Source: Okamejei kenojei (taxonomy: Eukaryota). From it: 64,000 nucleotides of DNA. A model generated the notes under the pieces. It did not search any database. It was not told where the DNA came from and saw only the letters and a program-made list of their open reading frames with translations. The stretch spans positions 34,348,001 to 34,412,000 of the forward strand of contig CM069142.1 of assembly GCA_035221665.1 (NCBI GenBank). Direction: 5' to 3'. A program made the translations under genes and the position numbers. Position 1 is the stretch's first letter. Every line of letters begins with the position of its first letter. This document shows, piece after piece, positions 8,312 through 51,205 of this stretch.

Positions 8312-8636
8312 CATAGAAACATAGAAAATAGGCCATTCGGCCCTTCAAGCCATTCAATATGATCATGGTTGTTCATCTAAAATCAGTACCTCTTTCCTGT
8401 TTTTTCCCCATATCCCTTGATTTCGCGCTAGCCCCAAGAGCTAAATGTAATTCTCTCTTGAAAACTATCTAGTGAATTGGCCTCCACTGCCTTCTGTGGC
8501 AGAGAATTCCACAGATTCACAACTCTCTGGATGAAGAAAGTTTGTCCTCATCTCAGTCCTAAATGGCCTGCCCCTTATTCTTAAACTGTGACCCCTTGTT
8601 CTGAACTCCCCCAACAGCGGGACCATTTTTCCTGCA
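8312..8636 (-). mobile_element. CR1 LINE 3' fragment fused to the TDP2-like segment
   Basis: GEFRTRGHSLRIRGRPFRTEMR C-terminal motif, CR1 3' UTR and (TTTCTATG)n-type tail; truncated at cctgca (compare 39001-39020). Confidence 0.9.
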
Positions 8637-8741
8637 GTTACAGTAAGTGAAAATGTAGCAGGCAAGCAGGATGCTTTTTCCAACCACCCCCATTTGAAGG
8701 CCACTATCTTCCACTGCTTCTACCCAGTGCTTGGTACTTAC

Positions 8742-8882
8742 TTCCAGCAGCCACTGGTTGTCCTCCAGGAAGCAACGAGCCGCAGCCTGATCCATACCGG
8801 TCACCAGGGCGAATTCGGCGCAGGGACTCTCACGGCAAACACTCGCCAGGCCCGGCTCCCCATCCGCTGCTTCTGCTTCCAT
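8742..8882 (-). pseudogene. TDP2: TDP2-like exon 1 fragment (N-terminal UBA-like domain) with intact donor and intron stub
   Basis: MEAEAADGEPGLASVCRESPCAEFALVTGMDQAAARCFLEDNQWLLE then |GTAAGT (phase 0). Resembles the TDP2 N-terminus (CxEFA..AxCFLxxNxWxxE). No further TDP2 exons recognised in the window. Confidence 0.72.
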
Positions 8883-10271
8883 CCCTCCCTCCGCCCCGGC
8901 TCTCCAACACCCACAACCAGGTTGCTCAAAGCAAACCAGCGCCTCGTCCAAAGACGGAGACATTGAAACATGTCTAGCCAAAGAAGTGGGTTTGAGGGAA
9001 AGATAGTTCAGCCATGATTGAATGGTGAAGTAGACTGAATGGCCCAATTCTGCTCCAAGAACATATGAATTTATGAACATTGCAGATTAGCAGCACTTAT
9101 CTTTTCCCCTTTGAGACAAAGACCTAGCAGTCAAAGTCGAGAAGTGATCTGACTTGAAACATCACCTACCATGTTCTCCAGGGATGTTATCTGACCCCCT
9201 GAGTTACCACAGCACTTTATGTCCTACTTTGTAAATCAGCATCTGCAGTTCCTTGCTACTACAGCCAAATCATGTATTGCATGCAACTGGGCAATCAAAA
9301 GATATTGATGCAATTAATATTTTCAAAATACCAATTGATTTGTTTTATTGATACAGCATGGAAACAGACCCTTAGGCCGACCGACTCCACGCTGATCACC
9401 CATCACCCATTCACATTAGTTCTATGTGATCCCACTTTCACATCCACTCCCTACATACTAGAAGCAATTTTACAGAGGCCAATTAACCTACAAAACCCGC
9501 CTGTCTTTGGAATTAAGTTTAGAGATACAACTTGGAAACAGGCCCATCGGCCCACTGAGTCTGCGCTGACCAACGATCACCCGTACACTTGTTCTATCCT
9601 ACACACAATGGGCAATTTACAGAGGGCCAATTAACCTACAAACCCACACATATTTGGAATGCGGGCGGAAACCGGAGCACCTGGAGGAAAACCACGGGGT
9701 CACAGGGAGAACGTGCAAACTCCACACACAGACATCACCCGAGGTCAGGATCGAACCCGGTTCTACCAGCTGCGTCATTGTTTATTTAAACATAAATGTT
9801 GAGTTGCACAGCTTTGGGAATGATTATGCGTGCATTTAATGCCACCTTAGCAACTCCAGGGTTAAGCAGTCAAGTAACTCAGTTACCAACAAGGTTGCAA
9901 AGACGCCTATACGTACTGGAATAGAAATCGACCTCACACAAAATATTCAAATCAATGGCAACCACACTCCCAGGTCTTTAATCTTCATTATCAGTATGAA
10001 GTGCAACTGTATGTGAGTGACTGTATGTTGTTGAAAGGAACTGCAGATGCTGGTTTAAACTAAAGATAGACACAAAAAGCTGGAATAACTCAGCGGATCA
10101 AACAGCGTCCCTGGAGAAAAGGAATAGGTGATGTTTCAAGTCGAGACTCTTCTTCAGACTGGTTATTCCAGCTTTTTGTGTCTAACTTTAGTGACTGTAT
10201 GGACTTGTTTGTGAGCACAATGAAGAACAATGCAGAAACAAGGAACTGTAGAAACACAGGTAGACAAAAAT

Positions 10272-40240: not shown

Positions 40241-42628
40241 GAGCGGACTGGGGGCAAACCTCCCATGCCCTGGGCGACGCTCTGGGGCTTCCGAGGTCGG
40301 CTGCGGGAGGCGAGGGGACGGGAATGTCAGTATTATTTTCTTTGGTGGATAATTCTTCTCAGCATTGAGTCCCTTTGCAATTCTATTCTAGCACCTTGTT
40401 ACTCAATGTGCAAGGAACTGCAGGCGCTGGAATCTCAAGCGAAACACAAAGTGCTGGAGAAACTCAGCGGGTCAGGCAGCATCTGTGGAAGGAAATGGAC
40501 AGAACACATCTCCCTCCACACACACACTGCCTGACCTGCTGAGTTCCTCCACCAGTTCGTGCTTCACTCAAGATTTCAGCTTATTCCATACACCCACCAC
40601 CATTTGTGTGAAATGTTACCCCTCAGGTTCTTATTAAATCTTTCCTCCCTCACCTTAAACCTATGTCCTCTGGTTCTCGATTCCCCTACTTGGGCAAAAG
40701 ACTCCCGATCTATTCCACTCGTGATTTTGTACACCTCTATGAGATCATCCCTCATCCCTCTGCATTCCTAGGAATAGTCCTAGCCTGCTTAACCTCTCCC
40801 TGTAGCTCCGGCCCTTGTGTCCTGGCAACACCCTCGTAAATCTTCTCTGTACCCATTCCATCTTATGGCTGAACAAATTCCTTTTTTTTTTTCACATTCA
40901 AAGAACCAGCATGAAATTGAAAATCGTTTGACGTTACCGAATCTTGTGGAGACAAGGAGAACCGCAGATGCTGGGATCTTGCGTAGAGCATAAAGTGCTG
41001 GAGGAACTCGGCGGGTCAGGCAGCATCTGTGGAGGGAATGTATGGGCGACCTTTCAATCTGATGAAGGTGTCCACCAGAAACGTCACCCATCTGTGTCCT
41101 CCACAGATGCTGTCTGACCCAATGAGTTTCTCCAGCACTTTGTGGCTCTTTTTGTAAAGCAGCATCTGCAGTTCATTGTGTCCACATGTGTGGAGTTTGC
41201 ATGAACTGGCTGTGATGGCCTGTGGTTCTCTCAAGTGCTCCGACGCTGGTTGTGAATATAATGGTTGCTGTAAATGCACAACTGGGACAGAAAACTGAGG
41301 AGCGTGGTGGAGTGAGGGGCATGTGAGAAAGAATAAGCTGCAGGAAAATGCAGGGACTGGTGGAAATGCTCTGAAAGCTGGCATTGACTTGATGGGGTGA
41401 ATGGCCTCGAATGTCCCAGGGAAACATGAGAGGTGTAACAAAAGTAGTGGAGAGGAAACGTGAGTGAAATGTATTCTGGAAAAGTGATAAAATGTTCTGT
41501 AGTCCTTCATAAGGTTGTTCACTGAAATAGAAGCTTGTGAAATTGAATGCAAAATTTATTGATCTAGCTAGGAAACTGGCTGAGTAGTATGAGAGGCTGT
41601 AAAGGTAATGGCTGTGTAGGCGTGACAAGTGGCATCCCTCAAGGTTAGGTAATCTAAGTCCAACTATTCACTTTTTATACCCACGTTTCATGACTAACTG
41701 TGTATCCATTCTCGCTAATGATTCAGACGTAAAGGACTTTGACATTATTATAGATAAATTAAGATTCAAAGATTCATTGAATGAGCAATACTGCTGAGAG
41801 ATTTCAGCCTAGACAAGTGTGAAGTCATTCATTTTAGACATTAAAGTGACAATGTACAGTAGATAACACCGAACCAGTGTGAGTGGGTTGCTGAGGACTC
41901 ATTGGGTCTAAGGACCTTTTTTGCAATGCAGTATCACTCAACTAAACTAAAGTTGATCGATTGATTTGAGCAACGCCAAAACAAAATTTCAACCTCGATT
42001 GTAGACATAAAGAATGGATAGAACATAGATAGAACGTAGAACAGTACTGCACAGGAACAGGCCCTAAGGCCACAATGTCTGTGCCGATCATGCTGCCAAG
42101 ACCAAGGCACGTGGTGCTGGAGTAACCCAGCGGGACGAGCAGCATCTCTGGAGAACATGGATGAGTGACATTTTGGGTCAGGAACTTAATTCAGATTGAA
42201 AGTGCCCCACCCAAAACGTTACCTATCCATGTTCTCCAGAGATGATGCCTGATCCGCTGAGTTACTCCAGGACTTAGTGTCTTTTTATGTAAACCAGCAT
42301 CTACAGTTCCTTGTATCTGCATGATGCCAAGGCAGGAGAATGGGGTTGAGAGGGAAAGATAAATCAGCCGAGATTCAATAACATTATGTGCCGACATTAT
42401 GGGCCAATTGGCCTAATTCTGCTCATATGACGTGTGAATTATGAATTTATCACTTCCTGTCCCTAATAATCTGAAGCTATTTGTTTACATAAATATGCTG
42501 CTATGGCGATGAGGAATATCTTTCCATTGTTGAGGCTTAGACAATGTTCGTGTTTACCAGCTGCTGGATTCTGTTTCTGAAAGCAGTGCTGAACAAGACT
42601 GTGGACAGACTGGCAGATTAATGGAGTA

Positions 42629-46924: not shown

Positions 46925-47375
46925 GAAGACTTTACGAGGATGTTGCCAGGTCTCGAGGGCCTGAGCTATAGGGAGACGTTAAGCAGGCTAGAACTCTGTT
47001 GAGGGGGTGATCTTATTGAGGTGTACAAGATCATGAGGGGAATATATCAGGTAGGTACACAGTCTCTTGCCCAGAGTAAGGGAATCGAGAACCATAGAAT
47101 AGAGGTTTAAGGCGAGGACAGAAAGATTTGATAGGAACCTGCAGGGTCACTTTTTCACAAGGCGTGATGGGTTTCTGGAACTAGCTGCCAGAGGAGGTGT
47201 TGAGGCAGATACTATTCCAATGTTTAAGATCCATTTTGACAGGTACATGGATAGGACAGGTTTAGAGAGATACGGGCCAAACGCAGGCAGGTGGGACTAG
47301 TGTAGATAGAACATGTTGGTCGGTGTGGGCAAGTTGGGTTGAAGGGCCTGTTTCCACACTGTATGACTCTACAAG
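46925..47375 (+). mobile_element. HER1/CR1-like LINE 3' fragment
   Basis: Degenerate CR1 C-terminal coding and a 3' tail (gaagggcctgtttccacactgtatgactct) shared with the SINE tails. Confidence 0.85.
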
Positions 47376-49525: not shown

Positions 49526-49891
49526 GGCTGACTTTAGGTCGTGTAGTAAAAGTTCCGACCGGTCCCTTATACCGTGTGGTGAAAACGCCCGTCAGTGTTC
49601 CCTGCAATGTCAGCGCCTACCAAGGGCCCTCTGAGCAAAATTTTGATTGGTTTGTGTCCCACAACGGCAGATTGGTGAAGGTGATCAGTACGTTGGAAGC
49701 CGAGTTTTCCGATGCAGAGTACAAGGACAAAGTTGCGTCCGGTGACATTTGGGTGGAGAGGCTGGGTGACAGCTCGGTTGAGCTGCGCTTCAGAAGTGTA
49801 AAGTTCGAGGATGAGGGGAGCTATCATTGCCAAACACCCAGTACAGACGAAAACAGTAATGGAAATTATGAAGCCCGTGTGAGCTTAAAGG
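49526..49891 (+). CDS. PTGFRN: PTGFRN-like exon 2, Ig-V domain 1
   Basis: Acceptor tttcttgcag|, donor G|GTAAGT, 366 nt. RVVKVPTGPLYRV..PCNVSAYQGPSEQNFDW..DEGSYHCQTPSTD..GNYEARV is the EWI-family D1 signature and resembles the PTGFRN N-terminus. Confidence 0.93.
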
Positions 49892-50104
49892 GTAAGTTCC
49901 ACCCTTTGTGCATTAATTTGCTATTAATTTTGATTGCATCTGTATAAATGTTTCTTAAACATTGTGATAGTACCTTCCTTAACTACCTCCTCCACATACC
50001 CACCACCCTTTGTGTGGGAAAAGTTAGCCTTCAGGTTCCTATTAAATCATTCCCCACTTTTTGTTTAGTTGGTAATCTTGATGCATTCTTTTATCAGTGT
50101 GAAG

Positions 50105-50449
50105 GAGCGTTACAGCGTGGAAACAGGCCTTTTGTGCCACCTTGCCCACACCAACCAACATGTCCCATCTACACTAGTCTAGTATGTCAGCTTTGGGTCC
50201 ACATCCCTCCAAACCTGTCCTATCCGTGTACCTGTCTAATTGTTTCTTAAACGTTGCAATAGTCCCTGCCTCAACTACCTCCTCTGGCTGCTCGTTTCAT
50301 ACACCCACCATGAAAGAGTTACCCCTCTAGATTCCTATTATATCTTTCTCCCTTCACCTTAAACCTTTGTCCTCTGGTTCTCGATCTCGCTACCCTATGC
50401 AAGAGACACTGTGCGTTTACCCGACCTAATCCTCTCATGATTTCATACA
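50105..50449 (-). mobile_element. HER1/CR1-like LINE 3' fragment abutting the exon 3 acceptor
   Basis: Reverse complement aligns by eye to the plus-strand copy at ~47010-47370; RTRGQRFKVKGERYNRNL motif. Confidence 0.88.
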
Positions 50450-50450
50450 G

Positions 50451-50879
50451 TGATTCCTGATAAACTCGCTGTGCTGCCTGCAAAGTCCAGAAGCCTAACC
50501 AACACAAACCACACAGAAGGGACGCCAATGGACATACAGTGTGTTGCATCAACGTCAACATCATCAACCGTTTCCACACATCTCTCCGTCACGTGGCAGT
50601 TGACCAAAAACGGAGGTGGTCCAGAGGACATCCTGTCCTTCACTGCAGATGACCAGTTACTACCCGGGGCCTCGTACACCGATCGATATTGGCAGGGCGA
50701 CGTTAGGATGAGCTTGGAGGGAAACGGTGTCTTCAGACTCGTCGTTGACCACTTGCAGCTGGAGGACAGTGGTGTCTACTCTTGTGTGGCAGCCGAGTGG
50801 GTCAAAGAAGATGGCTTCAACTGGAAGAAGCTCCATGAGAAAGAGGCAACCATCAAAACCATCACAGTTCTGCCACTAG
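50451..50879 (+). CDS. PTGFRN: PTGFRN-like exon 3, Ig-V domain 2 (EWI motif position, here EWV)
   Basis: Acceptor tttcatacag|, donor AG|GTACCT, 429 nt, phase 1-1. VIPDKL..IQC..THLSVTW..DSGVYSCVAAEWVKE. Confidence 0.92.
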
Positions 50880-50939
50880 GTACCTCGTTGCCAGATCCTC
50901 AGTCGGATTTTGGCAGATAGGTGAACCGCCCATTTTAAT

Positions 50940-51205
50940 GGGTGGATCCACAGTTTGGATGGAGCTGGTGGGACAGGTGTGAAGAGGGAGGTGGTGGGAC
51001 GGACATGAAAGGGAGTTGGGAGGAACATGAGGAGAGAGTAAGGACAGCCATGAAGAGGGAGTTGGGACAGACGTGGAGGGAGTTGGTGGGACGAGCTTGG
51101 AGTGAGTTGGTGGGTCAGGAGTTGGGACGGGGAGTGAGGAGGGAGTTGGGATGGGCTTGATGAAGGAGTTGGGACGGGAGTGAGGAGGGAGGTTGGTGGG
51201 ACGAG
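50940..51205. repeat. Degenerate G-rich tandem repeat (gagggagttgg(tg)ggac)
   Basis: Repeated units just downstream of exon 3. Confidence 0.75.

Follow-up and report, generated by a model that had tools for sequence, protein, structure and literature searches.

We analysed a window of 64,000 nucleotides of Okamejei kenojei (GenBank assembly GCA_035221665.1, contig CM069142.1, forward-strand positions 34,348,001 to 34,412,000; positions below are those of the window) that contains the Ig-domain exons of a PTGFRN-like gene. Thirteen of 15 homologs are named PTGFRN-like, two being without a name, and the closest named one, a skate protein (88%), maps to seven exons within the window. Six exons are of Ig type, and a Pfam Ig domain was found in five of the six tested. 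The names of the best homologs and the Ig-exon make-up together point to PTGFRN (EWI-F); a PDB search added nothing to the naming of the gene. The features discussed here are collected in Table 1. A few hundred bases precede the first Ig exon in spliced contigs, and the numbering as coding exon 3 is therefore likely. In all 15 homologs, sharks among them, a valine spans the junction of exons 2 and 3 and the spacing is the same; the start of exon 3 is thus ancestral and the protein free of LINE sequence. Exon 3 ends at a weak-looking donor, GTACCT (50880-50885), where the contig pieces stop at 50879, and a purine-rich simple repeat lies downstream of this donor at ~50980-51200. The genome holds a single copy of exon 3 above 34% identity. 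EWI-like Ig exons at 28-34% identity lie 75-280 kb downstream (G000:C12:34473677-34481519 and 34666514-34674867) and on another contig (G000:C24:44563785), and these are likely paralogs. Elsewhere in the window, an open frame on the reverse strand (8559-9086) includes a stretch that we take to resemble the TDP2 N-terminus.

Table 1. Features of PTGFRN-like intron 2 and its flanking exons (window positions)
Feature	Position	Strand	Details
PTGFRN-like Ig-domain exon 1 (likely coding exon 2)	49526..49891	+	366 nt; Pfam V-set; donor GTAAGT at 49892
Second antisense piece of this LINE family, more diverged, 3' tail missing	49935..50055	-	nhmmer E 2e-25, model positions 129-261
Unique non-repeat island, candidate ancestral acceptor (AG 50096-50097)	50056..50099	+	TTGAT at -17, T-rich tract, CAG/TG
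5'-truncated LINE 3' fragment, antisense to gene (end of ORF2, 3' region, tail)	50100..50449	-	Alignment and profile
Candidate branch motif CTAAT, A50429 at -22	50426..50430	+	Made by derived T>A
LINE-derived, interrupted pyrimidine tract	50430..50447	+	6/10 pyrimidines at -14..-5
Used acceptor CAG/TG	50448..50452	+	CA common to LINE and host; G and TG host; joint 49891>50451
PTGFRN-like Ig-domain exon 2 (likely coding exon 3)	50451..50879	+	429 nt; Pfam V-set

LINE sequence makes up ~470 of the 559 bases of intron 2 (49892-50450, GT..AG), in two antisense fragments. The longer one enters the intron tail first and forms its final 350 nt. Searching the genome with the intron end yielded 6777 candidates; 40 were scored, 29 sister copies were fetched, and a profile was built from 22. 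The last 40 intron nt agree with the majority of the 29 sisters at 35 positions. A previous sequence-only reading had traced LINE homology right up to the acceptor, and this is borne out: homology runs to 50449, and the sisters quoted from within the window, at 40705-40735 and ~47020-47050, read as described. Homology stops at a CA, and the host G that follows at 50450 is C in 24 of the 29 sisters, so that only the G of the acceptor AG comes from the host. To judge from the alignment, the CA common to LINE and host is likely a 5' microhomology. Over the whole fragment, the PTGFRN copy departs from the sister majority at 51 of 349 sites, and its divergence from the family majority is 11-15% of sites; an unusually dissimilar patch at 50176-50192 creates a donor-like GTATGT at 50182.

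The shorter fragment, which the sequence-only reading had overlooked, begins 43 nt after the donor. Its mean identity to the sisters is 0.828, versus 0.876 when the corresponding stretch of the adjoining copy is compared, and on this basis it is likely the older of the two. As it is without the 3' tail, deletions do occur in this intron.

The family can be assigned from its longer sisters, which carry a reverse transcriptase domain (RVT_1 in three of four sister frames tested, best E 4.5e-26); the element is therefore a LINE, a non-LTR retrotransposon. Consistent with this, the sisters have a fixed 3' end with a common TCATAG-type tail and variable 5' truncation, with ends at ~340-1650 nt. It likely belongs to the CR1 group, a label based on the C-terminal motifs of ORF2, which we take to be CR1-type, and on the abundance of the group in elasmobranchs. 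CR1-group elements are reported to occupy 22-34% of elasmobranch genomes (PMC13343379). Two loci of the family, L047 and L048, have an identical truncation junction, and four copies reading ..CATACAG are clustered at G000:C7:1051692-1109203; both are likely secondary duplications of composite repeats. Genome-wide, 269 family copies read ..TACAG at the position equivalent to the acceptor. Recurrent exaptation at this position was considered and rejected on viewing 30 of the 269, plus four others with CTAAT..AG: most of the viewed ..TACAG copies have a C>G within an element that carries on past it. In two of the 30, an open frame of at least 99 aa lies downstream, and neither looks like a host exon by eye.

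The acceptor next to the LINE is in use. We compared 8 of 24 sequencing runs, whose kinds were guessed, runs of 37-178 million letters with exon-joined contigs of 2-3 kb being classed as transcriptome-like. In all six transcriptome-like runs, from five studies, the joint 49891>50451 was present in one unbroken contig each; it was absent from the two genome-sized runs. The spliced contigs skip all 559 intron nt. There is thus no LINE sequence in the mRNA, which distinguishes this case from TE exonisation of the Alu-exon type. In DNA of a related organism, B, a contig spanning 50345-50900 (run X6) has the LINE end contiguous with exon 3; it differs from the window at 8 positions, 7 of which are listed in the exon, with at most one different site in 50345-50450. 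A spliced contig of the same organism (X14) carries the junction, and the exon-3 variants listed for it agree with those of X6. Runs X9 and X12, which bear the label of the best-matching organism, depart from the window at ~1% of exon sites, and several of these differences also occur in organisms B and C. Their source is close kin of the window's genotype and not the same genotype, so that the spliced RNA seen comes from genotypes other than the window's. What the junctions of organisms C and D show is the conserved exon boundary only.

The nearest AG upstream of the used acceptor is 43 nt away, and all sequence back to 50100 is LINE; under AG scanning, a conventional branch point must therefore be LINE sequence, which suggests that the LINE likely supplies both the branch point and the pyrimidine tract of the exon 3 acceptor. 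The earlier interpretation is upheld in part: the branch window and tract of an ancient exon's used acceptor are, as the alignment supports, LINE-derived.

The pyrimidine count of this tract is the lowest among the gene's seven used acceptors (the others having 7-9 by the same crude measure), and a good branch motif would therefore be useful. The motif CTAAT at -22, 21 nt before the G of the AG as earlier stated, is such a motif, and strong binding to U2 has been described for CUAAU (PMC4315302). We regard A50429, by its motif and position, as the likely main branch point; the alternatives are TTTAC at -32 and CTCAT at -14. The family consensus is without CTAAT: exact copies genome-wide number 6216 for the family form TCTATT and 92 for CTAAT, which indicates that the T>A at 50429 is derived and sporadic. 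Of the two substitutions put forward as creating the branch site, this T>A does make the CTRAY consensus, while the T>C at 50425, which gives CCTAAT, falls outside the motif; three of the 92 CTAAT copies, the window's included, read CCTAAT, and the two others each share 1 of 24 of the window's other variant sites. We also considered a CTAAT subfamily and rejected it: 20 of the 92 CTAAT copies share 62 of 462 other variant sites, versus 39 of 421 among the 17 controls used (a CTAAT row that aligned poorly was left out).

The substitution itself occurred at the background rate, with the control transversion T>G (CTAGT) found in 78 copies against the 92, and it is weak evidence of selection. This is so because decay of a CpG five bases upstream, which gives CTGAT in 1705 copies, already provides many copies with CTRAY. 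Altogether 1797 of 8013 exact-flank copies counted (~22%) have CTRAY at -22 or -27, mostly through CpG decay, as do 16 of 59 fetched sisters in the branch window, in samples selected for likeness to the window or for the AG. The earlier contrast with sisters lacking a branch consensus accordingly stands for the family form TCTATT and fails for the sister at ~47030, which has CTRAY (CTGAT) 5 nt upstream.

Upstream of the longer LINE fragment lies an island (50056-50097) that matches only itself genome-wide. An acceptor-like AG at 50096-50097, taken as unused and lying 353 nt upstream of the used one, and CAGTG at both ends of the insertion (50095-50099 and 50448-50452) had been noted before, and these coordinates proved correct. 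With 8 of 10 pyrimidines at -14..-5, inside the host range of 7-9, the island resembles the gene's other acceptors, and an acceptor-like left flank was found in only 3 of 38 sisters. The island is 42 nt long, similar to the repeat-free gap of 37-90 nt before the gene's other six acceptors, as measured with a repeat library limited to the window and the fetched loci. That the older fragment ends 42 nt before the old AG would be expected if this AG was once the protected one. The possibility that the island continues the older LINE fragment was rejected, since 703-1000 of 1000 shuffles reached an equally high score. The old acceptor has a GTAAT at -23 (50071-50076), one base off the branch consensus, which may, speculatively, be a decayed ancestral branch point. 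A search for an insertion-free ortholog gave none: the 24 runs listed include no genomic DNA from a distant relative, pieces retaining the intron were absent from the listings for organisms C and D and for the run without a label, and a metagenome scan brought up no relative.

The CAGTG repeat is only modestly above chance. Under a loose rule, 5-nt end repeats occur in 7 of 38 real sister pairs and in 14% of mismatched flank pairs; under a tight rule, in 1 of 38 and 62 of 1406, respectively. CAGTG is found near the left end in 3 of 38 sisters, and the tail region of the element has AG-containing repeats, so that the left CAGTG may be partly LINE-derived.

Insertions into acceptors usually lead to exon skipping and are purged. 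We propose, as a probable account, that an antisense LINE, now at the acceptor of an ancient exon and likely supplying its branch point and tract, inserted into that acceptor and duplicated CAGTG. Insertion would have produced a 5-nt target duplication, with the 5' end of the element joined through the shared CA and the exon keeping its AG, while the old branch and pyrimidine island would have been shifted 353 nt upstream. The antisense end of ORF2 would have offered 43 nt of AG-free, pyrimidine-rich sequence with a weak CTCAT at -14, on which splicing could have survived. A later T>A, by drift or selection, would then have created CTAAT at -22 as the likely main branch point, and any use of the old AG would meet an immediate stop and be removed by NMD.

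That the LINE displaced the old acceptor is, on this comparison of sequences, likewise probable. It is favoured because the island is unique and acceptor-like, its 42 nt gap is typical, and five bases falls within the 3-5 bp at which target duplications of L2/CR1 elements reportedly peak (PMC4245944). It is tempered because end repeats are not enriched in the 38 sisters, the tail has AG repeats and the intron has undergone deletions. These same three observations would fit an alternative in which the LINE inserted further upstream, or with loss of its target site, and the old branch point and tract were lost in a deletion running through the shared CA: the older fragment itself shows a deletion, and AG-bearing tail repeats often form the left ends of sisters. 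The island would then be ordinary intron and CAGTG a product of chance or of the LINE tail, although the present signals would still be LINE. We consider this unlikely, because it must account for a left flank that is acceptor-like, as in 3 of 38 sisters, and at once repeats the exact five bases of the used junction, for an island whose size fits the repeat-free gap at the other acceptors, and for a repeat of just the expected duplication length (PMC4245944, as above).

The role of CTAAT may be questioned separately. Splicing could instead branch at CTCAT (-14), at TTTAC (-32) or at more than one adenosine, with the T>A being neutral decay; this would leave the insertion, the displacement and the survival of splicing on the ORF2 end unchanged, and CTCAT is already in the family consensus. 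The background rate of the substitution, the frequency of CTRAY among copies and the general divergence of this copy all agree with such a view. However, CTAAT at -22 has the best sequence and placement on offer, and it corresponds to the strong U2-binding motif of PMC4315302, which makes an incidental CTAAT somewhat unlikely. The near identity of organism B in 50345-50450 points the same way, yet A and B are too close to show constraint. It is very unlikely that both acceptors are used, with the old AG giving a stop-containing isoform, either as a 353-nt extension or as an 84-nt cassette ending at GTATGT 50182, that tunes PTGFRN levels through NMD. The old tract is better than the new one (8 versus 6 of 10 pyrimidines), a TGA directly follows the old AG and the donor-like GTATGT lies 84 nt in, but the branch candidates of the old site are poorer (TTGAT at -17; GTAAT at -23 fails yUnAy). 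Use of the old AG had been expected to add 353 nt and shift the frame; the distance is right, and beyond the frameshift there would be an immediate in-frame stop: one valine, then TGA (50100-50102), ahead of at least five more introns. The joint 49891>50098 was absent among the 15 joints listed per comparison (of which there were 487 and 36 more), and runs X12, X14, X18 and X19 showed no cover in the bin 50069-50109; contigs lose rare forms and say nothing on absence, so neither result weighs for or against use of the old AG.

Parts of the preferred reading, a LINE inserted into an old acceptor, have precedents. In NF1 (Wimmer et al. 2011, PMC3219598), c.1642-1_1642insAluY, which duplicates c.1642-11 to -1, is likewise a retroelement inserted at a splice acceptor whose target duplication copies the AG. 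In contrast, that Alu is in sense orientation, de novo and pathogenic and causes exon skipping, whereas the PTGFRN element is an antisense LINE fragment common to two organisms and compatible with correct splicing. Exonised inverted Alus contain branch points (Mercer et al. 2015, PMC4315302), and there too an antisense retroelement gives a CUAAU branch motif and a pyrimidine tract. These serve new Alu-derived exons, however, and CUAAU is in the Alu consensus; at PTGFRN the exon is ancient, the mRNA is LINE-free, and a derived motif marks what is a candidate branch point from sequence. In OGDH intron 4a, TEs introduce or remove branch-point competitors (PMC7969005), so that TE sequence can be the branch point for an existing exon; those insertions are engineered and impair splicing, unlike the natural, tolerated replacement at PTGFRN.

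Zhang et al. (2011, PMC3088655) and Attig et al. (2018, PMC6108849) describe zones close to acceptors where TEs are under-represented, with tolerated full-length copies near acceptors within 20 bp of exons numbering 3 of 30 for Alu and 2 of 7 for L1 (PMC3088655; PMC6108849). This work defines the zone that the PTGFRN copy has breached; it consists of mammalian statistics, and in the parts seen how such copies supply splice signals is not traced. Antisense retroelement branch points, acceptor-duplicating insertions and rare tolerated TEs beside acceptors are thus already known from these sources; what has been described less is that an ancient coding exon tolerates such a replacement. In the literature covered, mostly as abstracts, we found no paper on a fixed LINE that took over as branch point and tract for a long-established constitutive exon.

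This is a single case, with no sign of altered protein or regulation. The locus keeps a likely before and after together, namely a candidate old acceptor and the new one, with thousands of sisters as a neutral baseline. It is therefore a good natural test of how the 3' splice signals of an old exon may be swapped and of whether a branch point can be selected from a LINE. A general extension seems to us rather unlikely, though it would have consequences for repeat-dense skates and sharks: acceptor LINE insertions with short duplications would be survivable there and would drive turnover of the branch points and tracts of ancient constitutive exons, with the duplication restoring the AG, selection fixing a branch mutation and the old acceptor left as a fossil or an NMD valve. 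If this is true, the antisense end of ORF2 would be a ready stretch of pyrimidines, free of AG, that a single mutation could bring to a branch consensus.
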